DNA of 64,000 nucleotides. Source: Escherichia coli. GTDB lineage: Bacteria; Pseudomonadota; Gammaproteobacteria; Enterobacterales; Enterobacteriaceae. Position numbers and translations under genes: made by a program. This document shows, one piece after another, positions 3,117 to 63,409 of the stretch. Location: the NCBI RefSeq assembly GCF_046105845.1, contig NZ_CP151004.1. One strand, given 5' to 3'. Positions within the stretch are counted from its first letter, which is position 1. Every line of letters begins with the position of its first letter. The notes below the pieces were generated by a model, which saw nothing but the letters and a program-made list of their open reading frames with translations, made no database searches and was not told the DNA's origin.

Positions 3117-3674
3117 TTAATTACCCTTCTTCTGTGCCGGGGTCTGGCCTTTGTTGTTTTTGTCCTGCAGCTGCGACGGCACCAGAACGGTGGTTACGCG
3201 CTTACCTTTGTCGCTGAAAGCCTGCATTTTCTGCTCTTTCACCAGGTAAGTGATCTTATCGCCCTTAATGTTGCTATCGACCTGCTGCAGATAAGCATTA
3301 CCCGTCAGAACGACAAAATCTTTTGCCAGTTCGTAGTGCATCTGGGAAGCGTGACCTTCAACGGGTTTACCATTGTCCTGCATCTGGTAGAACGTTGCCG
3401 GTTTACCGTAGCCGTCAATCACTTCTTTACCTTGTTCGCCGCCCGGACGGGTAACGACCACTTTGTCGGCATTAATTTTGATGGTGCCCTGGGTGACGAT
3501 GACATTACCGGTAAAGGTAACCACGTTGCCTTGCATATCAAGAGATTGCTGGTCCGATTCAATGTGGATCGGCTGATCAGTGTCTCCGGTTACGGCAAAT
3601 GCCGGAATGCTGGCGGCCAGAAGTGAGCTGGCAAGCACAAGATTAAGGCTGAGTTTGTTTGTTTTGAATTTCAT
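3117..3674 (-). CDS. lptA: Periplasmic LPS transport protein LptA
   Basis: ORF 3117..3695 with conserved start MKFKTNKLSLNLVLASSLLAASIPAFA (signal peptide) 7 codons in; ATG at 3672-3674 on minus strand. Confidence 0.93.
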   Translation of the reverse strand: MKFKTNKLSLNLVLASSLLAASIPAFAVTGDTDQPIHIESDQQSLDMQGNVVTFTGNVIVTQGTIKINADKVVVTRPGGEQGKEVIDGYGKPATFYQMQDNGKPVEGHASQMHYELAKDFVVLTGNAYLQQVDSNIKGDKITYLVKEQKMQAFSDKGKRVTTVLVPSQLQDKNNKGQTPAQKKGN

Positions 3675-17946: not shown

Positions 17947-18065
17947 AATCTCGCGCTAACAACCTGGAATCGAGCCGTCATACTACGGCGCAACGCCCTA
18001 TAAAGTAAACGATGACCCTTCGGGAACTTCAGGGTAAAATGACTATCAAAATGTGAATTGTAGCT

Positions 18066-18099
18066 GACCTGGGACTTGTACCCGGGTCGGTATTTTTTT
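18066..18099 (+). promoter_or_regulatory. greA leader hairpin plus U-tract (attenuator; likely 3' end of the GraL leader RNA)
   Basis: gacctggg...cccgggtc inverted repeat followed by ggta ttttttt (18093-18099), about 95 nt upstream of the greA ATG. Confidence 0.5.
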
Positions 18100-28694: not shown

Positions 28695-28816
28695 CTTTCC
28701 CTTAGAGTCCTTTTTCAAATATACTGTGAAGACTTCGGCCTTCGTAGTGGGATTTGAAAAAATCCTTCTGGAAAGTGCTCCAGACCGCAGTTGCGGTTAT
28801 AGGGTTCAGTTATATA

Positions 28817-28842
28817 AAGCCCCGATTTATCGGGGTTTTTTG
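28817..28842 (+). terminator. Intrinsic terminator/attenuator between metY and rimP
   Basis: aaagccccgatttatcggggttttttg; a second weaker hairpin gggctttaggcccttttttt at 28864-28883. Confidence 0.65.
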
Positions 28843-28900
28843 TTATCTGACTACAGAATAACTGGGCTTTAGGCCCTTTTTTTATGTCTTGGGGGTGGGC

Positions 28901-33578: not shown

Positions 33579-33656
33579 GTAGGCCGGATAAGGCTTTTAC
33601 GCCGCATCCGGCAGCCGTTGCCTGATGCGACGCTCGCGCGTCTTATCAGGCCTACA
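33579..33656. repeat. REP/BIME element (two inverted REP units) in the infB-rbfA spacer
   Basis: gtaggccggataaggcttttacgccgcatccggca and gcctgatgcgacgctcgcgcgtcttatcaggcctaca match the REP palindromic unit consensus. Confidence 0.8.
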
Positions 33657-35121: not shown

Positions 35122-35487
<366 letters not shown>

Positions 35488-35502: not shown

Positions 35503-35531
35503 GAAAAGGGGGCCTGAGTGGCCCCTTTTTT
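35503..35531 (+). terminator. Rho-independent terminator after rpsO
   Basis: aaaagggggcctgagtggccccttttttc. Confidence 0.8.
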
Positions 35532-35733
35532 CAAGCTGACGGCAGCAATTCACTGGAAACTAATGTATTGTTGCTATGAATGATCTTCCGTTGCAGAGGT
35601 TCGCGCGGCTAATGAGAGGCTTTACCCACATTGGGCTGGGTTAGGGTTGTCATTAGTCGCGAGGATGCGCAGAAGATCGGGTATTAACACCAGTGCCGTA
35701 AGGTACTGTCTAAGAAAGAGAAAGGATATTACA

Positions 35734-39041: not shown

Positions 39042-40943
39042 ATGGCTGAATTCGAAACCACTTTTGCAGATCTGGGCCTGAAGGCTCCTATCCTTGAAGC
39101 CCTTAACGATCTGGGTTACGAAAAACCATCTCCAATTCAGGCAGAGTGTATTCCACATCTGCTGAATGGCCGCGACGTCCTGGGTATGGCCCAGACGGGG
39201 AGCGGAAAAACTGCAGCATTCTCTTTACCTCTGCTGCAGAATCTTGATCCTGAGCTGAAAGCACCACAGATTCTGGTGCTGGCACCGACCCGCGAACTGG
39301 CGGTACAGGTTGCTGAGGCAATGACGGATTTCTCTAAACACATGCGCGGCGTAAACGTGGTTGCCCTGTACGGCGGCCAGCGTTATGACGTGCAATTACG
39401 CGCCCTGCGTCAGGGGCCGCAGATCGTTGTCGGTACTCCGGGCCGTCTGCTGGATCACCTGAAACGTGGCACTCTGGACCTTTCTAAACTGAGCGGTCTG
39501 GTTCTGGATGAAGCTGACGAAATGCTGCGCATGGGCTTCATCGAAGACGTTGAAACCATTATGGCGCAGATCCCGGAAGGTCATCAGACCGCTCTGTTCT
39601 CTGCAACCATGCCGGAAGCGATTCGTCGCATTACCCGCCGCTTTATGAAAGAGCCGCAGGAAGTGCGCATTCAGTCCAGCGTGACTACCCGTCCTGACAT
39701 CAGCCAGAGCTACTGGACTGTCTGGGGTATGCGTAAAAACGAAGCACTGGTACGTTTCCTGGAAGCGGAAGATTTTGATGCGGCGATTATCTTCGTTCGT
39801 ACCAAAAATGCGACTCTGGAAGTGGCTGAAGCTCTTGAGCGTAACGGCTACAACAGCGCCGCGCTAAACGGTGACATGAACCAGGCGCTGCGTGAGCAGA
39901 CACTGGAACGCCTGAAAGATGGTCGTCTGGACATCCTGATTGCGACCGACGTTGCGGCCCGTGGCCTGGACGTTGAGCGTATCAGCCTGGTAGTTAACTA
40001 CGATATCCCGATGGATTCTGAGTCTTACGTTCACCGTATCGGTCGTACTGGTCGTGCGGGCCGTGCTGGCCGTGCGCTGCTGTTCGTTGAGAACCGTGAG
40101 CGTCGTCTGCTGCGCAACATTGAACGCACCATGAAGCTGACCATTCCGGAAGTTGAACTGCCGAACGCAGAACTGCTGGGCAAACGTCGTCTGGAAAAAT
40201 TCGCCGCTAAAGTACAGCAGCAGCTGGAAAGCAGCGATCTGGATCAATACCGTGCACTGCTGAGCAAAATTCAGCCGACTGCCGAAGGCGAAGAGCTGGA
40301 TCTCGAAACTCTGGCCGCCGCACTGCTGAAAATGGCACAGGGTGAACGTACTCTGATTGTTCCGCCAGATGCGCCGATGCGTCCGAAACGTGAATTCCGT
40401 GACCGTGATGACCGTGGTCCGCGCGATCGTAACGACCGTGGCCCGCGTGGTGACCGTGAAGATCGTCCGCGTCGTGAACGTCGTGATGTTGGCGATATGC
40501 AGCTGTACCGCATTGAAGTGGGCCGCGATGATGGTGTTGAAGTTCGTCATATCGTTGGCGCGATTGCTAACGAAGGTGACATCAGCAGCCGTTACATTGG
40601 TAACATCAAGCTGTTTGCTTCTCACTCCACCATCGAACTGCCAAAAGGTATGCCGGGTGAAGTGCTGCAACACTTTACGCGTACTCGCATTCTCAACAAG
40701 CCGATGAACATGCAGTTACTGGGCGATGCACAGCCGCATACTGGCGGTGAGCGTCGTGGCGGTGGTCGTGGTTTCGGTGGCGAACGTCGTGAAGGTGGTC
40801 GTGAAGGCGGTCGTAACTTCAGCGGTGAACGCCGTGAAGGTGGTCGTGGTGATGGTCGTCGTTTTAGCGGCGAACGTCGTGAAGGCCGCGCTCCGCGTCG
40901 TGATGACTCTACCGGTCGTCGTCGTTTCGGTGGTGATGCGTAA
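39042..40943 (+). CDS. deaD: Cold-shock DEAD-box RNA helicase DeaD/CsdA
   Basis: ORF 38976..40943; conserved start [33 protein letters not shown] at ATG 39042; Walker [13 protein letters not shown] motif [11 protein letters not shown]; RGG/RE-rich C-terminal tail. Confidence 0.95.
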
Positions 40944-42401: not shown

Positions 42402-42932
42402 TCAAATAAACCCCTGTTTATTATAAAGTTCTTCAGCGAGAGCTTCCCCGTGCTCATCGAAAAAAGCATCGGCGATAGTTAAATTTTCTGCCTTAGGATT
42501 TGCCGTTATTTTGCTACCATTGGCATCAAATTCGAGCGCGATAGCGGTCTCCGAACCCCACCAGTAATAATAAATTAGCGCAAAATTATTTTCCCCTGGC
42601 GTAATAAACTTCTCGATTCCCCGCACACAGGCCATGAGTGGCATGAAGATTTCATAGCTCTCTGAGAGAAATATGTGATCCATCGTGACTATCTGTGTTT
42701 CTTTATTAAAGTTGATATGTTCGGCATAAATATTCTTTTCACTTTCACCAGAATTACAAGCTGCAAGATTGTTAAGCATTTTTGCAGGATCGCCGTACAA
42801 CCGCTGCTTCTCGATAAACCATGGCAACCAGTCGTCATGGTCTTTGATATTTGTTGCTGGTGAATGGAAAAACTTCTCGAGGTTACTCTCGGTAATATGT
42901 GCATGAAGAAAAAAGGAAGCCGGTTCACTCAT
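42402..42932 (-). CDS. Hypothetical acidic cytoplasmic protein, 176 aa, no recognizable family
   Basis: ATG at 42930-42932 (minus); MSEPASFFLHAHITESNLEKFFHSPATNIKDHDDW...IYYYWWGSETAIALEF; no signal peptide or TM segment; AT-rich; lies between mtr and yhbW, which I recall as adjacent in K-12. Confidence 0.6.
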   Translation of the reverse strand: MSEPASFFLHAHITESNLEKFFHSPATNIKDHDDWLPWFIEKQRLYGDPAKMLNNLAACNSGESEKNIYAEHINFNKETQIVTMDHIFLSESYEIFMPLMACVRGIEKFITPGENNFALIYYYWWGSETAIALEFDANGSKITANPKAENLTIADAFFDEHGEALAEELYNKQGFI

Positions 42933-43089
42933 AATGATTTTCTCTGGTAATAAGTCGATTTGTTCATTTCTCTGTTTGGCGATGATAAAACGATGACTAT
43001 TTTATAAAAGTACAGAACTGGACCTTTTATCTATTTCATATCATAAGAAAATATATACAAGAACTGGCTCAGAATAAGCGGAATACGAA

Positions 43090-43809
43090 ATGGGGCGTAA
43101 AGGACTACTTGCTATTGTATTGTTGAGCCTGTTTATCGCCATGATTTTTCAATTTTTCTGGCCTGCCCCACACGATGAACACGTTTTCCTGCCAGTTGAA
43201 AAACCTGTCGCACCGTCTTTAAAAATCATTCATCCTGGTGACCAGTTATTTATCCGCATTCTGAAAGCGGAAGATAAGCTGGAACTGTGGGCAAGCACCA
43301 ACAACAAGCCTTACGAACTCTATAAAACCTGGACTATATGCGCGTGGTCTGGTGGCTTAGGGCCAAAACACAAACAGGGGGATGGTAAAAGCCCGGAAGG
43401 TTTTTATGCCACCAACAAAGGGTTGCTTAACCCAAACAGCCGCTATCATCTGGCATTTAATATTGGTTACCCGAATGCTTACGATCGGGCAAACGGCTAC
43501 ACCGGTGATTTCATTATGGTTCACGGGAACTGCGTTTCAGCGGGCTGCTATGCCATGACCGATGCTGGTATTGAAGAGATTTATCAACTGGTGGCGCAGG
43601 CGCTGAATAGCGGGCAGAAGAGCGTGCCGGTGCATATCTTCCCGTTTGCGATGAACGAAGAAAATATGCGCCAGGCGCAGGTATGGCCGGAATATAATTT
43701 CTGGCGTATGTTGAAGCCCGGCTATGATTACTTTGAAAAAAATCGCCGATTGCCAACCATCACCGTTGAAAACCGGCGTTATAAAATCAGCCCAACAATT
43801 CTTCCTTAA
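43090..43809 (+). CDS. YafK/DpaA-like L,D-transpeptidase-fold (YkuD domain) protein, 239 aa
   Basis: [24 protein letters not shown] hydrophobic N-terminus; [19 protein letters not shown]; catalytic-type motif [15 protein letters not shown] (His...Ser-x-Gly-Cys); LKPGYDYFE; 3' end overlaps the yhbW 3' end by 23 bp. Confidence 0.8.
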
Positions 43810-44794
43810 CATCCATCGCCAGTTCAAACGAATGCAGGCGCGCCTGGTGATCGAAAATCTGCCCGTTAACCATAATCTCATCGGCGTCGGTTTCGCGCAG
43901 GATCGACTGCAAGCCATGACGCACTTTCGCTTTATCACCCACCAGCGACATACTCAGCGCCTGCTGCACGCCATACTGCTCGGACGGTGACCAGAACTGA
44001 TCCATATTTTGAATCGGCGGCGGTAGTTGCCCGGTTTCGCCACGGCGCAGCTTCACAAAGGCTTGCTGCATTGAGGTAAAGAGAAATTCAGCGTCGCGGT
44101 TGCTGTCGGCGGCGATAATATTGATGCACACCATCGCATACGGTTTTTCCAGCCGTGCCGACGGTTTGAAGTTGCTGCGATAAAGATGCAGCGCCTGGAA
44201 CAACATATCCGGCGCGAAGTGTGAGGCAAACGCAAACGGCAGACCAAGCTGCGCCGCCAGTTGCGCGCTGTAAAGGCTGGAGCCTAACAACCACACGGGG
44301 ATTTTCTCGCCATAGCCCGGTACCGGGCGCACATGCGGATTGGGATCGCGGGCGTCAAACCAGTCCACCAGCTCCGCGACATCGCGGGGGAAATTATCAA
44401 TATCGCCGCTCATATGACGACGTAGAGCCATCATGGTTCGCTGGTCACTACCCGGAGCACGGCCCAGCCCCAAATCGATTCGCCCCGGATAGAGCGTATT
44501 AAGCGTGCCGAACTGTTCGGCGATCACCAATGGTGAGTGATTAGGCAACATCACGCCGCCAGACCCCAGATGCAGCGTAGTGGTATTCGCCGCCAGATAG
44601 CCAATCAAAACTGATGTTGCAGCACTGGCAATGCCGGTCATATTGTGGTGTTCTGCCAGCCAGTAGCGATGATAGCCGCGCTTTTCAGCCAGACGGGCGA
44701 GCTCGAGAGAGTGGGAGAACGCTTCCCGCGCTGAAGAGCCTTCGGGAATGGGGGCCAGATCGAGTAGCGAAAACGCAATGGTTTTATCAGTCAT
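43787..44794 (-). CDS. yhbW: Luciferase-like (LLM-class) flavin monooxygenase, 335 aa
   Basis: [62 protein letters not shown]. Confidence 0.9.
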
Positions 44795-46965: not shown

Positions 46966-47490
46966 GTGTTGGATAAACTGCGTTCCCGTATTGTGCATTT
47001 GGGGCCATCTCTGTTGAGTGTACCGGTAAAACTGACGCCATTTGCGCTAAAACGTCAGGTTCTTGAGCAGGTCCTAAGCTGGCAATTCCGTCAGGCGCTG
47101 GATGATGGCGAGCTGGAGTTTCTTGAAGGCCGCTGGTTAAGTATTCATGTGCGTGATATTGACCTGCAATGGTTTACCTCGGTGGTGAATGGCAAACTGG
47201 TCGTTAGCCAGAACGCGCAAGCTGATGTGAGTTTTAGTGCCGACGCCAGCGATCTGCTGATGATTGCGGCGCGTAAACAAGATCCGGATACGCTCTTCTT
47301 CCAGCGTCGGCTGGTGATTGAAGGCGATACGGAGCTGGGGCTGTATGTGAAAAACCTGATGGACGCCATTGAACTGGAGCAAATGCCGAAAGCCTTACGC
47401 ATGATGCTGCTGCAACTGGCGGATTTTGTTGAGGCGGGAATGAAAACCGCGCCTGAAACCAAACAGACATCGGTAGGTGAACCATGCTAA
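46966..47490 (+). CDS. ubiT: SCP2-domain lipid-binding protein UbiT (YhbT), GTG start
   Basis: ORF 46942..47490; conserved N-terminus LDKLRSRIVHLGPSLLSVPVKLTPFALKRQVLEQ from GTG at 46966; divergent from ubiUV. Confidence 0.85.
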   Translation: MLDKLRSRIVHLGPSLLSVPVKLTPFALKRQVLEQVLSWQFRQALDDGELEFLEGRWLSIHVRDIDLQWFTSVVNGKLVVSQNAQADVSFSADASDLLMIAARKQDPDTLFFQRRLVIEGDTELGLYVKNLMDAIELEQMPKALRMMLLQLADFVEAGMKTAPETKQTSVGEPC

Positions 47491-47987
47491 TTCGAGTAGA
47501 AATTCCCATTGATGCGCCGGGTATTGATGCCCTGCTGCGTCGTTCATTCGAAAGTGATGCGGAAGCGAAGCTGGTTCACGATCTGCGTGAAGATGGCTTT
47601 CTGACGTTGGGGCTGGTGGCGACAGATGACGAAGGTCAGGTCATTGGCTATGTGGCATTTAGTCCGGTTGATGTGCAGGGCGAAGACCTGCAATGGGTCG
47701 GCATGGCACCGCTGGCGGTAGATGAAAAATACCGTGGACAGGGGCTGGCACGCCAACTGGTCTATGAAGGACTCGATTCGCTCAATGAGTTCGGCTATGC
47801 CGCAGTGGTGACGCTGGGCGATCCGGCGCTGTACAGTCGTTTCGGCTTTGAACTGGCGGCGCATCACGATCTGCGTTGCCGCTGGCCGGGCACTGAAAGC
47901 GCCTTCCAGGTACATCGTTTAGCGGATGACGCGCTGAACGGCGTAACCGGTCTGGTTGAGTATCACGAGCATTTCAATCGCTTTTAA
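47484..47987 (+). CDS. yhbS: GNAT-family N-acetyltransferase, 167 aa
   Basis: [62 protein letters not shown]; acetyl-CoA motif RGQGLARQL. Confidence 0.88.

Positions 47988-48749: not shown

Positions 48750-48770
<21 letters not shown>
48327..48770 (+). CDS. yhbP: Pyridoxamine 5'-phosphate oxidase-like FMN-binding protein, 147 aa
   Basis: [55 protein letters not shown]. Confidence 0.85.
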
Positions 48771-52460: not shown

Positions 52461-52856
52461 TTATGAGTGGTCATTAAAGGCATCCTTAATCCACTCAACC
52501 TCATTCCCGGTGAAGGCTACCACATCGAACCGGCAATCCACAGTATCAAAACTCCCATTATGACGCGCGAGCCACAAGCGGGCAGTCTGTAATAATTTGT
52601 GTTGTTTGCTGCGGGTCACACTGGCTGCCGCGCCGCCATAAAGCGCAGAGCGGCGGTAACGCACCTCAACAAAAACGGTGGTCCGGCCTTCACGCATTAT
52701 CAGATCGATCTCGCCGCCACGCTCGTTCACGTTAGCGGCGATAAACCGCAGTCCTTTGCCTTCCAGCCAGCGACGCGCTTGTGCTTCCCACGCATCGCCG
52801 GTCTGTTTGGTGGTTAACTGGCGGGGACTACCTGACCTTGTTGGTACTGTAGCCAT
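52461..52856 (-). CDS. yraN: UPF0102 family protein YraN, 131 aa
   Basis: [57 protein letters not shown]; start lies about 43 nt inside the lpoA 3' end. Confidence 0.88.
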
Positions 52857-54850
52857 GATAACTTCCTGTTAATCACGCAATCCGGGTTAGCCGTCAGACT
52901 TCCGGTATTACCGTTGATTTCAAAACCCTGAACCTGGCGCATTTGTGAGAAATGATTTGTCAACGACCAGGCATCGACGCCCATCGCATACATGCGAGCC
53001 AGCGAATAATCGTTGTTCACCGCGCTGAGCGCCTGCTGCATTAACGGCAGATTACCGCCTGCCAGCATCGGGATTTCGCTGTACTGCAAGCCTTCCATCT
53101 CCAGACGGAAATCCGGGCCTGCGGTGCCTTGTGCGCTGCGGGAACTGGCGTACAGCGTTGCACCGCTCTGGCTACCGTTACGCATGGCGATCATCGGTTT
53201 GATAAAAGCGATTTCACCCGGCGTTGCCACAATGTAGACCGCATCGACACGACCGCCATTATTGGTGAACTGGTCATCGGTTGGCGTGGTTTGCAGCGTT
53301 GGATTGTTGGTCGTCATGCCGGAGTCGGTTGTCGCTCTGGGAGTAATCGGGCTACCCGTTAAAGCAATACCAGAACCGCCGTTAACACCCGCGCGTAATT
53401 CGCTGGTGGAACCAAATTTTTGTTGCAGAACGGTGCCGCCACCCAGTTTCTGCCACTCTTGCGCAAACGCATTGGCTACGCGATCGCCCAATGAACTACG
53501 TGGGATCAGCACCAGCGGCGCTTGTTTACCCTGGTCACGAATATGACGCGCAGCATCGCGCGCTTCGTCTTCTGGTGAAAGCGCGAAGTAACAAATATTG
53601 ACGCGGTTTTCGATATTCTCCGGCTGGTTCAGTGCCAGCACGTTCAGCGGGGTGTTGCTCTTCAGCAACTCTTCAACGTTATTTTTCAGCAACGGGCCGA
53701 CCACAATACTCGCGCCATCCTGTTGAACCTGGTTGAGGATCTGGCTAAGTGGTTGTGATGATGTATCGTAGATTTTCAGCTCTGCGGATGGATTCGCAGG
53801 TGCGCTTACCGCTGCGGTGGTTGCCGCCGGGGCGTTTACAGGCACCGGCTGGGCCGCAGGTTGTTCACCGGTCAGATCGCTAACCGAGGCTTGTGCCGGG
53901 CTGGCAACGCCATCCACGGTTTGCGGCTGAGGTTGTTCTGCTACGTCTGCGGCAGGTGCGGCAGCTACCTGAGTCGCCACTGGCTGAGTGCCGATATTTT
54001 TCGCCGCTTCAAAGCCTTGCTGAATAGTGCGACCAAATACCGCTGCCTGGCCATTCAGTGGCAACAGCAGGGCGATTTTGTTGGTCGATGCGGGTTTAAA
54101 CGCTTTTACGTTAACCAACTGCGTTGGCAGCATTTTCGCGCCCGGGTTGTTCGGATAACGTTTCTGCCAGTCGGCGATCCCGGCTTTCATCATGTCGGGA
54201 TCGTTACGGTTATCAAACCAGATGCGCTGCAGATCCAGCCAGCCTTGCAGAATATTTTCGTCGGCATTGATCACCAGCGTATTCGCCTGTTCCTGAGTCA
54301 TGGAGGAGAGCGCCTGCCAGGTGGCGTCAATATTCTGCTGCTTTTCTTTCGCGCCGAGCAGCGGTTCCTGAGCAATTAACGCGCGCAGTAAATCAATGGA
54401 AGGACGCCCCTGGCTGGCATCGATTTTTGCCTGCCAGTAACGCGCTTGCTGGTTTTGTTCTAAATCTGCAGGTGTGATTTTCGCCAGCAAGTTTTGCGCG
54501 CCAGCAAAATCTTTCTGCGCCAGTTTAATCTCTGCCGCCAGCAGTGTTTTCTCGCGACGCTGAGAATCGTTCAGTTCTTGCGGTAGTTGGTTAAACAACT
54601 CCACCGCCTGTCCGGTTTTACCTTCTTTCACCAGTGCACGAATGGCGAGTAATTGCCAGTTGATCCTGGTATCATCAGAACTTTGCTGCATCTGTTGCAG
54701 GTAAAAGGCAGAATCAGCCTGCGCCGTGCCCTGCATATAGGCAGTGGACTGATCGGGAGTATGGGTGCCACAACCGGCGAAAATCAGGGCTGCCAGAACA
54801 ACAGGCAGACAACGCGCGGCTTTCAAACGAGAAAATGTTGAGGGTACCAT
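52814..54850 (-). CDS. lpoA: PBP1A activator lipoprotein LpoA, 678 aa
   Basis: ORF 52814..54880; conserved start [28 protein letters not shown] (lipobox) at ATG 54848-54850. Confidence 0.93.
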
Positions 54851-54914
54851 AATGTATCCAGTGATATTTTTTTTACGCAATGCTCAATATTAAATCGGCA
54901 ATACGGACGACACA

Positions 54915-55790: not shown

Positions 55791-56885
55791 TTACCTGACA
55801 ATAACCGTAATGGTAGCTGATGCTTTAAAAGGTCCGGTCGACAATACTCCACCGACCAGATTTACAGGATAAGCCTGAAAGTGTGTTGTTCCTGCTCCGG
55901 TTTTATCTAGCAGAATGATGCCTGGATTAAATGGAACATCTACTTGCCCTTTAGTCACATCCATAAGGCGGATACCAACATCAGGGACATCATCACTTTC
56001 ACGGCGTCTTGCGACTAAATTATATTGATTAACATAATCTGAACCTTCAATTTTCATATACAAGCTATTGTTAATTTGGGACATATCACCGCAATCATAG
56101 GTAATATCAAAGCTTACTGGAGTGTAACCTGTTGGCATCTGATTTTGTAGGGTGAAACGTTGAGCGCTAATAAATCCAAGATTTACATTAATGGTATCAC
56201 CTTGATTTATTTTGCAACTTTGAGGTACCGTAATTCGGCCTTGAATATAGATTTTAGCAATATCCTTAATGGGACGTGGTGCAGCAGAAGTACTTGTCCA
56301 CGCAGCCTGGACTGAAGCAATATGTGTTTCAGGGATATTCAGTTCACCCAAAAATGGCGTAGTGACGTATAGTGTAATCGTTGTATTTTTACCAATAGAA
56401 AAGTCTGATCCCCGAACATTGGCTGGGTCGGCCATGCACACACTATTGTTTTTGTTAGCATGGTAAGTACCAGTACCGTCTCTAAGCGGTGTATATGAAT
56501 TGCTTGGAACCATAACAGATGGATTACCAGGAATGTCGTTTATTTGGGTTTTAATATCCAGATTAGAATTCAGTCGATAGAAATCTCGTTCTTTACCTTG
56601 AGTTATTAATGCAGATGTTACTGTATAATACAGGTTAACTTTACTACCTGCCGGACAAGAGCAGTTTAAGGTGTAATTGCTCCCAATAGCTGAATTCTTT
56701 ACCACATAATCTTTGCCGGCAACATTATTATCTTGTGTCCAGTCCTCAGAAGCATCTGTCCGAAATTCACCTGTTCCTTCACAATCACCTGTTGCTGCCT
56801 TTACCGATGGGCTAAGTAACAGGGGGGAGACCACGGCAGCAATAGACAATAGTTGTTTAATCATTTTGAAACTCCCTAAAGACAC
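55791..56885 (-). CDS. yraK: Putative fimbrial adhesin/tip protein of the yra chaperone-usher operon
   Basis: MSLGSFKMIKQLLSIAAVVSPLLLSPSVKAATGDCEGTGEF (signal peptide; start could be the internal MIKQ); last gene of the usher operon. Confidence 0.85.
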   Translation of the reverse strand: MSLGSFKMIKQLLSIAAVVSPLLLSPSVKAATGDCEGTGEFRTDASEDWTQDNNVAGKDYVVKNSAIGSNYTLNCSCPAGSKVNLYYTVTSALITQGKERDFYRLNSNLDIKTQINDIPGNPSVMVPSNSYTPLRDGTGTYHANKNNSVCMADPANVRGSDFSIGKNTTITLYVTTPFLGELNIPETHIASVQAAWTSTSAAPRPIKDIAKIYIQGRITVPQSCKINQGDTINVNLGFISAQRFTLQNQMPTGYTPVSFDITYDCGDMSQINNSLYMKIEGSDYVNQYNLVARRRESDDVPDVGIRLMDVTKGQVDVPFNPGIILLDKTGAGTTHFQAYPVNLVGGVLSTGPFKASATITVIVR

Positions 56886-59398
56886 TTTGCCGAATCACGA
56901 ATAATGGGGGTAGTGATGTTCGCGCTATCGTTCAGACTAAACGTAAACTGGCATTGTTGGTTTATTCCACTTCCCCAGCGAACCTTCCAGGTTTGTGGTT
57001 TTTTATTAATGCCGGAGAGATAAATAACTCCAGCTTCATCGACAATACTTTGTTGGAATTGGCCTTCATTACTGGCAACAGCACCAAAAGGAATGGGCTT
57101 ACCTTGGACGTCAGTTAGTGCTAATAGCACTCTGTGACCGGTTTGGGCATTAAAATTTGCAACGACAGCGGCGCCCTGTCCTGGCACGACAATCTTTGCA
57201 GTCTCCTGGACATCTACATTATCCGGCATTGTAGTAGTGTCTAAGGCAATACGATTTTCCTGATAAGCCGTTAAATAAGGGATGACGGCGTAACCAAAGT
57301 AATCGGTGGCAATACCAGGGTAATTTTTAACCCGAATATTAGATGCACCCTGGGTATCAATTACGGCAAATGTATTACCCAGCGGTTGTGAGAGAGTCAC
57401 CCCATGGGGGTGTGCGACAATTCCACCTGAAAGACCATAGCTGAACTGGCGACTGTTTGACGTGTAATCATAGTTGGCGTTAACAGTGCCATAAGCAGAG
57501 CGGTAACTACCAGAAAGCGTACTGCCGTTATTATTATTTTCCTGGTCCATTCGTTGTTTAAAGCTGTAACTTAATCGGTTGTCATCAAGGAAAGAACCGG
57601 TAATGCCAGTCTCATATTGAGTTGAACGGTATTTTTCATCAGTGACACGAAACGTAGCTTGTGCATTAGGTAACCAACGATCCAGAGGCAGACTAATACT
57701 AAAAAAGATTGCCCTATCACTATCGCGATCGGAATAATCTGTGAATTGTCCACTCACGCTGTAGCTGATGCCGGCAAGATAGCCGTTCAGTCCGGCAGAA
57801 TAATTGCGATCATTTTGTTCTGCTCCCCAGTATTCTCGTTGTGCACCTGAAATATAAAAACTGAGATTATCAGTCAGCGTTTGGTTAACGTTGAAAATCG
57901 CTTCGCTGCGTTGGCGATTGTTTACATTAATATCACGTTGGTTTGCGTCGGCAAAGGTAAAAAAAACTGAGTTGGAATAGCGCGAGTAACTAAGAGAAAG
58001 GCTTGTTCCTGTTTCGGGTATATCTTTAATATATTGAAAACGTAAACCTTCCCCGGTAAATTTTTCTTTATTTTCTAACTTCGTTTTGGCATAAGTTAAA
58101 TCAACGGAAAGTGCGCCCAAAATACTCAATGTGCTACCGATGCCTAATGCTGCTGCTTGATAATCCTTGGATCCAGTTACCCCACCATAAAGAGTGAAAA
58201 TATTAGTAAGGCCGTAAAATGCTGTGCCTTCGATGAACTCTGGTTCTTTACTATTAGATGACGGGTCTGCACGAAATCGCCCTGCTGTCATGCTATATAA
58301 AAGATGGCCTGGCCGTTGCATAACAGGAAGTGCTGAAAACGGCTGAGTAAATTGGCGAACGGTACCATCGGCTTCTTCAATTGTAACGTCTAAATCACCG
58401 CTAAATGAGGATGGATAGAGATCGTTGATTTCGAATGCTCCCGCCGGGACATTGCTTTGATAAATTGTATAGCCATTCTGGCGGATGGTGACTATTGCGC
58501 TGGTATTGGCAATCCCACGGATAATCGGTGCAAAACCTCGTAAGCTATTCGGTAACATGTTCTCGTCAGAATAAATTCTGGCACCCGTAAACTGAACGCT
58601 GGAAAAAATTGTGCCATCAGTGGCGCTTTCACCAAGCACTAATTGCGACTTTAAACTCTTAATATCACGCTGCAACCAACTATTAATACTATCCCAGCGA
58701 GTCTCATTACTGCTATGTGTCCACGTGGAGTAATTACGCAACCGCCATGGGCCGATATTGACTCCATTTTGCATATTGAGATAAAACCTTTCATTCTTTT
58801 CGCTGTTACTATAATAACTGTTCGAGCCACTAAAACTGTAATTGGTAAACAATACTGGAATACCATGATCCCACCTGGCGGGATCAACATAACCAGAAGG
58901 GTCACGCCGCAGGGCAATTTGTGGAATGTCCAGGATGAGAGTGCTATGGTTGAGGTCTATCTTTGTTTTGCTTCCAGGTACGGTTTTGGATAAATCTGTT
59001 ATCAGGGCGTTGTCATCAAGAGTATTTAGTGAATTTATTTCGTCAACTTTAAAACCCAATTCGCGTAAAAGACCAACGGTAAGCTGTGGGCGAATTTCTC
59101 CATTATCATCTATAGCAAAAGTGATTTTTCTCTGAGTCACCTTTTTTTTATTGATAACGATCTCAACATCATAATCACCGGGACTATGAGTATTTTTACC
59201 GGAGAAAGCAGATAAATCGCTTGCCTTTTGACCACTCTTTGTTGTTTCCAGCAATGAGGGATCAAAATAGTAATTGTCAGCAATGGCATGAAGAGGGGAC
59301 AGAACTCCACCAGTAATAAGAACAGGTAATACTGTTTTTAACCAGCAGGAAAGTGGTTTCATAACAGGTAAAGAGATGCATTTTATTTTGGTTTTCAT
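56876..59398 (-). CDS. yraJ: Fimbrial outer-membrane usher protein, 840 aa
   Basis: MKTKIKCISLPVMKPLSCWLKTVLPVLITGGVLSPLHAIADNYYFDPSLLE; usher-size beta-barrel protein; C-terminal Cys pair. Confidence 0.92.
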   Translation of the reverse strand: MKTKIKCISLPVMKPLSCWLKTVLPVLITGGVLSPLHAIADNYYFDPSLLETTKSGQKASDLSAFSGKNTHSPGDYDVEIVINKKKVTQRKITFAIDDNGEIRPQLTVGLLRELGFKVDEINSLNTLDDNALITDLSKTVPGSKTKIDLNHSTLILDIPQIALRRDPSGYVDPARWDHGIPVLFTNYSFSGSNSYYSNSEKNERFYLNMQNGVNIGPWRLRNYSTWTHSSNETRWDSINSWLQRDIKSLKSQLVLGESATDGTIFSSVQFTGARIYSDENMLPNSLRGFAPIIRGIANTSAIVTIRQNGYTIYQSNVPAGAFEINDLYPSSFSGDLDVTIEEADGTVRQFTQPFSALPVMQRPGHLLYSMTAGRFRADPSSNSKEPEFIEGTAFYGLTNIFTLYGGVTGSKDYQAAALGIGSTLSILGALSVDLTYAKTKLENKEKFTGEGLRFQYIKDIPETGTSLSLSYSRYSNSVFFTFADANQRDINVNNRQRSEAIFNVNQTLTDNLSFYISGAQREYWGAEQNDRNYSAGLNGYLAGISYSVSGQFTDYSDRDSDRAIFFSISLPLDRWLPNAQATFRVTDEKYRSTQYETGITGSFLDDNRLSYSFKQRMDQENNNNGSTLSGSYRSAYGTVNANYDYTSNSRQFSYGLSGGIVAHPHGVTLSQPLGNTFAVIDTQGASNIRVKNYPGIATDYFGYAVIPYLTAYQENRIALDTTTMPDNVDVQETAKIVVPGQGAAVVANFNAQTGHRVLLALTDVQGKPIPFGAVASNEGQFQQSIVDEAGVIYLSGINKKPQTWKVRWGSGINQQCQFTFSLNDSANITTPIIRDSAKCL

Positions 59399-59450
59399 TA
59401 TTCCCTTATTTCCTTATTCCCTGTCATATGTATAAGTTTTGTATAAATAA

Positions 59451-60143
59451 TTATGGCAAAGTAGATGTATATGTATCCGTATTACCGCCATAGTCATTAA
59501 TGGCTGCCCATTTCACGATGTTTTCTGAAACTAATGGCAATGGTAATTGCTTATGTTCACCCGGTGCAATAAATTCTATTTTATCGGTAAAGTCGGTTTT
59601 TCCTACAGCCAGTCCTGAAAAAACAACGTAATATGCCGAAGGATTATATATCTCCAGTTGGTTGTTCTTCCTTGAGAATTTTAGGCCTTTATAGGCATCT
59701 GAAGGTCTACCGTCCATTTCTGATGGTCTGTAAAAGAGTTTAATGCGTGTTTTAAATACTAAAGTAAGTAGGTTCTTATCTTGCGTTTCTTTTTTATCGA
59801 CAGCAGGAATTGCACGGACGTTAATATAAAAAAGTGATTCTTTATCTCTCGGTAGATTGCCATCGGTTTTAATGATACGCAATGAAGAGTTGTCTCCGGC
59901 ATCAAGACGAAATAGCGGAGGGGTAATAATAAAAGGGCCGCGAGAAGAGTCATAGATATTTTCAACCCACGATTGTAATAAATATGGTGGTTTATCACTT
60001 CGATTAGTGACCGGCAATGCAGCTTCTTTTTTACTACCATCATAAACTACACGCGTTCTTTCCAGAAGGATTCCACCAGCCAGACTCTGGTTCACCCAGC
60101 CAGCTAATAGAAAAAGTATTGCAAACGATTTTTTAATCTTCAT
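59451..60143 (-). CDS. yraI: PapD-like periplasmic fimbrial chaperone, 230 aa
   Basis: [62 protein letters not shown]. Confidence 0.92.
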
Positions 60144-60232
60144 CTTCTGTTACCGCTACGAAATAAAATTGTCTCTTTAACAGCAGACCGCTAAAGAGAC
60201 AAAATAAAGGATTATGAACTAATGACTAGTTA

Positions 60233-60805
60233 TCAACGATAATCAAGAGTTACATCCACAGTAGCATTAGCTTCACCGGGTTTGATTTTATCGGCTGTTG
60301 TGGTTGACACATAGTAAGCCGCTAAATCTAAATTCATCGTGGAACCAGTAATTGGGAAAGATATCTTTGGAACACTAAGTTTGTTAATTGCCATAGGTGT
60401 TTGAGCATCTTTTTCAATCCGAATACCAACACCTGTAGCCGCGGTATCTGGGTCCATACTTGTAACAGCAACTAACTCATTGTTATCACCGGTAGTTGCT
60501 CCGTTACGCGTTTCCAGCCATAACTGGAAAGACGCATCTTTAGTACCATCAATGTGATCCCAGGCTACCGTTGGGCAGTTTTTCAACGGAATAGTGAAAG
60601 GGATCGTAGGGGATTTATCCCCTTTAAACTTAAACTGATTAGCGGCATAGTGACCTAATTCAACATAAACTGTATCACCATTCGCAAATTCACAGACAGT
60701 GCCAAGAATTTCACCCGTGAATTCAATTTTTCCATCGGTTGCGGAGGCGCTACCGGCAAAAAGCGCCAGCAGGCCAGCGGCAACTGTCTTAGCTACTTTA
60801 CTCAT
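60233..60805 (-). CDS. yraH: Fimbrial major subunit (pilin), 190 aa
   Basis: MSKVAKTVAAGLLALFAGSASATDGKIEFTGEILGTVCEF (signal peptide, conserved Cys pair); first gene of the usher operon. Confidence 0.9.
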   Translation of the reverse strand: MSKVAKTVAAGLLALFAGSASATDGKIEFTGEILGTVCEFANGDTVYVELGHYAANQFKFKGDKSPTIPFTIPLKNCPTVAWDHIDGTKDASFQLWLETRNGATTGDNNELVAVTSMDPDTAATGVGIRIEKDAQTPMAINKLSVPKISFPITGSTMNLDLAAYYVSTTTADKIKPGEANATVDVTLDYR

Positions 60806-62617: not shown

Positions 62618-63409
62618 TTACAAAATGCCGAATGCGGAACAAACAATAGAGAGCACAAAAGTCACGCCGATTAACAGCACCGGATGCGCTTTTTTCACCC
62701 GCAGGAAGTAATACATCAGCAGGGTGTAGGCCATCGGTAAAATGTTCGGGAAGACTTTATCGAAGAAATCCTGTTGCAGCGCGACGCTGTGGGTACTGTC
62801 GATGGCAAACGATGTCACCACGTTAATATGCACATACGAAGCGATCAGCCCGCCGATTACCGTGATCCCGAGGATGGTTGCCGAACGAGCAATCATCTGC
62901 GAGTTCTCTCGCACTTTATCGATCGCCTTCACGCCGACTGAATAACCGACGTGGGTCCAGCCGACGCGCAGGAAGAAGATAAGCAGGTAAACGGCGAAAA
63001 ATAGAATCGGCCCCAGCAAGTTTCCCTGGCTGGCAAATGATGAGCAAATTCCCGCCATAATCGGCAATAAGGTAAACCAGAAAATCGCATCGCCAATCCC
63101 GGCGATTGGGCCAAACAGTGCCACTTTGAGGCCTTTAATGGTGTCGCGGTTTTCTCCTTTTTCTTCCATCGAAATTAATAACCCCATCAGGAATCCGACC
63201 AGATTCGGGTGGGTATTAATAAATTCGAGGTTATCTTTCATCGCCGCGCTTAGGCCCGGTTTGTCGTCCTTATAAATCTTTTTCAGGATCGGCAACATCG
63301 CCCAGGTAAAACCGCCCGCCTGCATCCTTTCGTAGTTAAAGCTTGCTTGTAGCAGTGACGAACGAAAGCCCAGACGGGTGATATCTTTTTTACTGATTTC
63401 AGATCCCAT
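62618..63409 (-). CDS. agaD: PTS N-acetylgalactosamine/galactosamine EIID component, 263 aa
   Basis: ORF 62618..63571; conserved start MGSEISKKDITRLGFRSSLLQASFNYERMQAGGFTWAM at ATG 63407-63409. Confidence 0.9.
   Translation of the reverse strand: MGSEISKKDITRLGFRSSLLQASFNYERMQAGGFTWAMLPILKKIYKDDKPGLSAAMKDNLEFINTHPNLVGFLMGLLISMEEKGENRDTIKGLKVALFGPIAGIGDAIFWFTLLPIMAGICSSFASQGNLLGPILFFAVYLLIFFLRVGWTHVGYSVGVKAIDKVRENSQMIARSATILGITVIGGLIASYVHINVVTSFAIDSTHSVALQQDFFDKVFPNILPMAYTLLMYYFLRVKKAHPVLLIGVTFVLSIVCSAFGIL

Follow-up and report, generated by a model that had tools for sequence, protein, structure and literature searches.

The closest described relatives of the gene arrangement reported here are the NTGA (-4) and -1 overlaps of bacterial operons, in which co-directional neighbours interlock and both the start codon and the Shine-Dalgarno (SD) sequence of the downstream gene lie within the upstream open reading frame (ORF) (PMC12548453). 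More than 80% of overlaps are shorter than 30 bp (PMC12548453), and the efficiency of translational coupling drops steeply as the distance between stop and start grows (PMC12548453, PMC10666635). A longer precedent is the coat/lysis pair of phage MS2, at -50 nt, whose coupling has been explained by RNA unfolding (PMC12548453).

The lpoA/yraN pair of Escherichia coli, in which the start of yraN lies 43 nt inside the 3′ end of lpoA, shares with the -4 and -1 overlaps the co-directional neighbours, the embedded start and SD and, with 43 mod 3 = 1, an identical phase class. It differs from them in being much longer, with stop and start 40 nt apart rather than interlocked. With MS2 coat/lysis it has in common a long out-of-frame overlap and a downstream start placed tens of nucleotides before the upstream stop; coupling of the MS2 pair, however, is attributed to RNA structure, and the pair belongs to a phage RNA genome, whereas the yraN start lies in a chromosomal operon and no significant or conserved structure was found there. 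A third comparison is offered by lptC/lptA, likewise a same-strand overlap of tens of nucleotides; it belongs to a conserved operon for envelope biogenesis, and every E. coli record inspected annotates it. Its phase is different (32 mod 3 = 2), and its two products work in the same LPS-transport machine, whereas the known roles of LpoA and YraN are unrelated. Overprinted N-terminal extensions, finally, resemble the case in that YraN residues 1-13 are encoded wholly over the conserved LpoA tail and are missing from Yersinia/Photorhabdus orthologues and from the family models. The YraN leader, however, comprises only 13 residues, shows no selection of its own and is not a new functional domain.

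As detailed below, lpoA and yraN very probably form a genuine out-of-phase overlap within the row lpoA-yraN-diaA-dolP, with yraN starting only at the AUG at 52856 (minus strand) and with its SD selected within lpoA. The overlap is genuine, already known, long annotated and biologically routine; the papers on lpoA and yraN that we consulted do not comment on it. Its interest lies in being a clean and conserved case of a long (>30 nt) overlap on one strand that does not come from a misplaced start, and in its asymmetric constraint: the LpoA tail is kept, the YraN leader is free to vary, and a rare AGG codon is retained as part of a Shine-Dalgarno sequence.

Position and annotation of the lpoA/yraN overlap

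The window, a stretch of 64,000 nt, is an E. coli chromosome segment that runs from ptsN/hpf to agaC in the reverse of the K-12 orientation. Its features are collected in Table 1. The region around lpoA/yraN has matches at 95-100% identity in more than 5,400 complete E. coli genomes. The 43-nt yraN/lpoA overlap of the preliminary description was borne out by the ORF list and by RefSeq annotations, and the gene names, coordinates, lengths and orientations given there were all right. PGAP annotation of strains PCN033 and MEW contains the identical 43-nt overlap, as does the RefSeq record of K-12 MG1655 (lpoA 3293400..3295436, yraN 3295394..3295789); it is annotated in the K-12 reference and in every E. 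coli record that we inspected. The annotated lpoA start at 54850 precedes a lipobox, FAGC, and the ORF lister extends the same ORF to a TTG at 54880.

Across the junction, the minus strand in the lpoA frame is GTG ATT AAC AGG AAG TTA TCA TGG CTA CAG ... AGT TAA. The yraN ATG spans TC-A TG-G, the lpoA codons for Ser665 and Trp666. The overlap comprises the lpoA codons from the third base of S665 to S678 plus the stop codon, and yraN codons 1-14 plus one base, and each lpoA wobble base within it is the first base of a yraN codon.

Table 1 Coordinates of the lpoA/yraN junction, of the other tabulated overlaps and of known RNAs in the window.
Feature	Positions	Strand	Description
lpoA CDS	52814..54850	-	678 aa; stop TAA 52814..52816; ORF list and RefSeq annotation
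yraN CDS	52461..52856	-	131 aa; ATG 52854..52856; ORF list
lpoA/yraN overlap	52814..52856	-	43 nt; direct reading
Shine-Dalgarno AGGAAG for yraN	52862..52867	-	5 nt upstream of the ATG; lpoA codons AGG (R662) and AAG (K663)
TAA in the yraN frame	52869..52871	-	15 nt upstream of the ATG; direct reading
lptC/lptA overlap	3643..3674	-	32 nt, same-strand; a typical signal peptide (MKFKTNKLSLNLVLASS...) begins at the lptA ATG (3674)
L,D-transpeptidase-family ORF (43090..43809, +)/yhbW (43787..44794, -) overlap	43787..43809	.	23 nt, convergent; YkuD PF03734
ubiT/yhbS overlap	47484..47490	+	7 nt, same-strand
yhbS/yhbQ overlap	47974..47987	.	14 nt, convergent 3′ ends, set by two stop codons
yhbP/yhbO overlap	48750..48770	.	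21 nt, convergent 3′ ends, set by two stop codons
agaC/agaD overlap	63399..63409	-	11 nt, same-strand; agaC runs off the window end
greA leader	17977..18098		Rfam
rimP leader	28783..28883		Rfam
naRNA4	33582..33652		Rfam
S15 leader	35160..35274		Rfam
SraG	35504..35675		Rfam

Both overlapping genes encode members of conserved protein families

LpoA is an outer-membrane lipoprotein that activates PBP1A (PMC7806268, PMC8824477). The encoded protein matches the Pfam family LppC (PF04348, E = 2e-135) as far as residue 672 of 678, and the alignment with the Haemophilus influenzae LpoA structures 3CKM and 5KCN extends through its tail, as TWYQYQDGAIVPV. YraN belongs to the UPF0102/YraN family of PD-(D/E)xK nucleases: the motifs GEIDLI ... 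VEV(R/K) are present, PF02021 matches residues 24-114 (E = 3.6e-25), and TIGR00252 matches residues 10-131 with 202.7 bits against a curated cut-off of 69. The search returned 6777 YraN homologues, with 131-aa orthologues throughout the Enterobacteriaceae, and the solved relative PDB 3FOV aligns with YraN from residue 14. The family profiles, the homologues and the structures of relatives together indicate that lpoA and yraN are both real protein-coding genes. A preprint describes YraN as acting with the helicase ComM to resolve D-loops in natural transformation (Legionella, Acinetobacter, Vibrio).

Residue 66 of YraN (window positions about 52659..52661, minus strand) is an Arg, in E-V-R, where the Lys of PD-(D/E)xK is expected. 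We considered this as a peculiarity or defect of E. coli and rejected the idea, since E-V-R occurs in 80 of 82 loci (L001-L083) and is lineage-wide; a Lys was found only in two Vibrio species.

The yraN start codon and Shine-Dalgarno sequence are conserved across species

We aligned enterobacterial YraN proteins and scanned species-representative genomes, which yielded 80 loci with flanking sequence; at each locus the lpoA stop and all candidate yraN starts were located and the junction was read. The 43-nt, same-phase arrangement was present at 41 of the 80 loci, each a species representative, although these 41 are phylogenetically related and amount to far fewer than 41 independent observations. 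They belong to Escherichia, Citrobacter, Enterobacter, Kosakonia, Kluyvera, Pluralibacter, Cedecea and Mangrovibacter, and further to Erwinia, Pantoea, Edwardsiella, Acerihabitans and Zophobihabitans. A canonical start (ATG, GTG or TTG) occupies the 43-nt site in all but one of these species representatives (40 of 41). The start codon begins on the wobble base of the lpoA codon that precedes the invariant Trp666; at this base, 31 species have A, 3 have G, 6 have T and 1 has C.

The SD region showed a similar pattern. Arg662 of LpoA is encoded by AGG in 36 of the 41 species, a codon that accounts for 5 of the 486 Arg codons (~1%) in 24 genes of the window. At the lpoA wobble sites -12, -9 and -6, entropy is 0.44, 0.28 and 0.60 bits, compared with a mean of 1.16, which places these sites among the least variable of 60. 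The low wobble entropy and the retention of AGG point to selection on the yraN start codon and SD, and not on LpoA.

Within E. coli yraN itself, the in-frame TAA bounds any upstream extension, and the first in-frame ATG, GTG or TTG downstream of codon 1 is codon 43. As this codon is already within the PF02021 domain, the annotated ATG is the sole canonical start that gives an intact YraN. An evaluation of alternative starts, which the preliminary description had proposed as a check, leaves the overlap in place, and the removal of the overlap by remapped starts, which it named as the refuting outcome, is very unlikely for yraN. The supplements of three start-site studies (TetRP, INRI-seq and the TRAINSPOTTER N-terminomics) contain no yraN entry.

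Long overlaps often arise from mispredicted start sites (the theme of PMC2478687), and the true yraN start might on that account lie downstream of the lpoA stop or be non-canonical, with no real overlap at all. YraN residues 2-14 are indeed not conserved in their own frame, and the YraN proteins of Yersinia and Photorhabdus lack the leader. Since purifying selection on these residues as such is not seen, their translation cannot be confirmed from protein conservation, and it is the start codon, the SD and the absence of alternatives that carry the case for a genuine start. These speak strongly against an artefact: the first downstream candidate falls within the nuclease domain, and the start codon and SD have been kept against the codon usage expected of lpoA. 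The one species without the start codon has gained a TTG at codon 14, which is what relocation looks like, whereas E. coli has TTA there. We therefore regard a misplaced start as highly improbable; the conservation of the yraN start across species indicates that the overlap is neither chance nor an artefact of annotation.

A fusion of LpoA to YraN by programmed frameshifting was also considered and rejected. Inspection by eye found no canonical slippery heptamer in the 43 nt, and it would be senseless to join a lipoprotein of the periplasm to a nuclease of the cytoplasm. The idea had been prompted by one E. coli protein entry (P0004, 'YraN family protein', 160 aa, 2 member sequences), which carries the LpoA tail in frame with YraN from residue 10; it is probably the product of a rare one-base genomic frameshift inside the 43-nt overlap.

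The shared bases evolve as lpoA sequence

To see which frame constrains the shared bases, we aligned the 41 junctions, essentially without gaps, and compared the entropy of the alignment columns between codon positions. In the lpoA frame, the entropies at positions 1/2/3 were 0.56/0.51/1.15 within the overlap and 0.47/0.33/1.16 in the 60 upstream codons that belong to lpoA only. In the yraN frame, the overlap gave 1.15/0.46/0.51, a periodicity inverted relative to that of yraN-only sequence (0.62/0.56/1.27). Selection on both frames would be expected to restrain the lpoA wobble bases, whose entropy across the 41 junctions was 1.15 inside the overlap versus 1.16 outside. Only the lpoA frame is visibly constrained, and the 43 shared bases change in the manner of lpoA sequence.

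The two protein sequences reflect this. The LpoA tail, W-[LSNQ]-[QK]-[YF]-x-Q-G-Q-[IV]-V-P-[AV]-[SN], is conserved as far as Haemophilus, also in taxa that have no overlap, and YraN residues 3-13 vary freely across species. Leu14 of YraN looks invariant in the closer enterobacterial set, largely because the lpoA stop fixes bases 2 and 3 of its codon. Residues 2-14 of YraN thus appear to be an unconstrained, dispensable leader that is laid over the conserved LpoA tail and precedes the nuclease domain.

Distribution and loss of the overlap

No overlap was found in Yersinia, Rahnella, Photorhabdus, Xenorhabdus, Providencia or Morganella, where the two genes are separated by gaps of 5 to about 360 nt. 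Most of these taxa keep the LpoA tail. Their yraN start codons correspond to residue ~9-14 of the E. coli protein, and several are preceded by an intergenic SD of their own, e.g., AAGGACG. Overlaps of other lengths and in another phase occur in Vibrio (35 or 11 nt), Tolumonas (47 nt), Zobellella (32 nt) and Aeromonas, where the yraN starts are ambiguous. As read from this distribution rather than from a reconstructed phylogeny, the adjacency of lpoA and yraN would be old in Gammaproteobacteria, and overlaps between them would have arisen or shifted more than once. The 43-nt form would be ancestral to much of Enterobacterales and would have been resolved later in Yersinia, Rahnella and the Photorhabdus/Providencia group, by a spacer bearing an SD for yraN and a start matching E. 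coli residue ~14.

The single species without a canonical start at the 43-nt site, 'Klebsiella sp. BIGb0407' (L034, 2954-2996), is the only one with CTG there, and its SD is degraded too (AAC AGA AAA). A TTG at codon 14 forms a classic 4-nt TTGA overlap with the lpoA stop, and this locus is a natural example of a long overlap collapsing to the common NTGA form. Two routes by which the arrangement is dismantled can accordingly be distinguished: in one the start moves to codon 14, leaving a 4-nt overlap; in the other, exemplified by Yersinia and Photorhabdus, a spacer containing a new SD separates the genes.

A further locus, that of the bee-gut symbiont Candidatus Schmidhempelia bombi (L077, 3001-3060), has stop codons within the first few yraN codons (ME*VS*...), which suggests that its yraN is a pseudogene or uses a different start.

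Initiation at the embedded yraN start

The genes lpoA, yraN, diaA and dolP form a co-directional row, with gaps of 19 nt between yraN and diaA and 9 nt between diaA and dolP. Within this row, sigma-E promoters have been placed only just upstream of dolP (PMC7806268). A promoter pattern scan around lpoA/yraN found no promoter-like site near the yraN start, and the terminator patterns around the pair included nothing informatively positioned. We infer that initiation of yraN is directed by its SD on a polycistronic mRNA, at an AUG embedded in lpoA: the ribosome would be recruited by AGGAAG inside lpoA, an SD kept at the cost of a rare Arg codon. Ribosomes translating lpoA may modulate this initiation, by helping it or by occluding the site.

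According to the preliminary description, same-strand overlaps imply translational coupling. For lpoA/yraN the overlap permits coupling without implying it. In a termination-reinitiation scheme, a ribosome ending lpoA at 52814 would go back ~40 nt and reinitiate at the yraN AUG, so that YraN would be made in proportion to LpoA. The two genes are co-directional and apparently co-transcribed, with no promoter-like site close to the yraN start; models of bidirectional ribosome scanning and SD-dependent 70S scanning in vitro have been described (PMC12548453), and the conserved SD could serve as the capture site for the returning ribosome. The lpoA stop, however, lies 40 nt downstream of the yraN start, outside the close stop-start spacing of termination-reinitiation, and the classic form of that process fits the pair poorly because the two codons are so far apart. 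The steep distance dependence of coupling, the preponderance of overlaps below 30 bp and the attribution of the MS2 case to unfolding (PMC12548453) weigh in the same direction. Moreover, a gene that initiates independently would need just such a strong, conserved SD, and nothing that we examined suggests that a secreted lipoprotein and a cytoplasmic nuclease are required in matched amounts. We consider reinitiation rather unlikely.

Ribosomes on lpoA might instead act on the yraN ribosome-binding site (RBS) directly, either by opening a structure that hides it or by covering it and so keeping YraN low. The RBS lies wholly within a translated ORF, so that every ribosome on lpoA passes over it, and in the minimum-energy fold of the E. 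coli sequence a small hairpin takes up part of the AUG. This fold is no better than that of shuffled sequence (120-nt fold, z = -1.07; 31 of 200 shuffles fold equally well), and the 21-species consensus fold at the RBS reaches only -0.56 kcal/mol, with 0 compensatory pairs. With the fold non-significant and the consensus empty, we rejected an RNA structure masking the yraN RBS as a conserved feature, and regulation of yraN by unfolding or occlusion seems unlikely overall. SD-directed initiation is the step that the evidence supports; coupling is possible alongside it and is required by nothing seen here, and occlusion of the RBS by lpoA ribosomes is equally conceivable.

Consequences for yraN knock-outs

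The overlap matters chiefly in practice: deleting or tagging yraN at its 5′ end, or LpoA at its C-terminus, alters the other gene. In the Keio design, nothing of the target gene remains but its initiation codon and its six final codons (PMC9504249). A Keio-type deletion of yraN would by this design also cost lpoA its final 13 codons. Given the standard P1 primer sequence (ATTCCGGGG...), TCA would be followed in the lpoA frame by the stop TGA, truncating LpoA after Ser665 and depriving it of the invariant Trp666 and the conserved tail.

In an lpp+21 screen, lpoA and yraN were both synthetic-lethal, and yraN, the 'only cytoplasmic factor', was dismissed as a technical artefact (PMC8824477). Truncation of LpoA is a candidate explanation of this result that is simpler than a technical artefact. 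More generally, the phenotypes of yraN knock-outs may be partly lpoA phenotypes, which could explain the lpp+21 result; we regard this as plausible rather than probable. Counter-evidence comes from the heat sensitivity of yraN::kan, which a yraN plasmid complemented at least partly (PMC5828445). The proposal of YraN as a nuclease partner of ComM in the preprint means that such mutants will be made, and envelope phenotypes of the LpoA type could then be misattributed.

Other overlaps and features of the window

The five further overlaps in the preliminary description (lptC/lptA, ubiT/yhbS, yhbS/yhbQ, yhbP/yhbO and agaC/agaD) have the lengths claimed for them, according to mapped annotation and direct reading. 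The list was incomplete: kdsC/lptC overlap by 4 nt, mlaC/mlaB by 1 nt, folP/glmM by 8 nt, rbfA/truB by 1 nt and yrbN/deaD by 8 nt, and the convergent pair formed by the L,D-transpeptidase-family ORF and yhbW had also been left out. A truncation of agaC, as a 191-aa ORF from the lister would have it, was rejected, as the correct frame continues without a stop as far as the end of the window.

The convergent pairs yhbS/yhbQ and yhbP/yhbO had been taken to imply antisense interference, that is, devices by which the partners down-regulate each other. There is no intergenic room for a terminator, and the two transcripts must therefore be complementary over at least 14-21 nt plus the 3′ UTR. Against this, no Rfam family was found at the convergent junctions, and the region holds 7 terminator-like matches against 3.2 expected, none of them convincing or placed as a shared bidirectional terminator at either junction. 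Short 3′ overlaps are, moreover, commonplace in compact bacterial genomes. The claim of interference found no support at these junctions, and we think such a role quite improbable. Across the whole window, Rfam identified seven known RNAs, namely SraG, the greA, S15 and rimP leaders, naRNA4, a tRNA-Leu and a tRNA-Met, and none of them lies at an overlap; SraG is antisense between rpsO and pnp.

Several other features of the window deserve mention. Between rsmI and agaI (55791..60805) lies a four-gene chaperone-usher fimbrial cluster (a fimbrial protein, an 840-aa usher, a chaperone and a fimbrial protein), which in this form is rare among complete E. coli genomes. The part of the window from 40000 to 64000 was covered to at least 80% in 1 of 5,426 genomes, that of strain MEW, from an ivory gull. 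In PCN033, the best match to the lpoA region, the fimbrial cluster is wholly absent.

The interval between mtr and yhbW (42402..43809) contains a 176-aa ORF (42402..42932, minus strand) with no Pfam match and the L,D-transpeptidase-family ORF, which is intact here at 239 aa and is a pseudogene with an internal stop in PCN033. Strain MEW carries an IS621 transposase in the same interval. Lastly, deaD (39042..40943) appears 12 nt longer than that of VCSW5, the expected end for a 1890-nt gene being 40931; the difference suggests four inserted codons, possibly within the repetitive region at the C-terminus.
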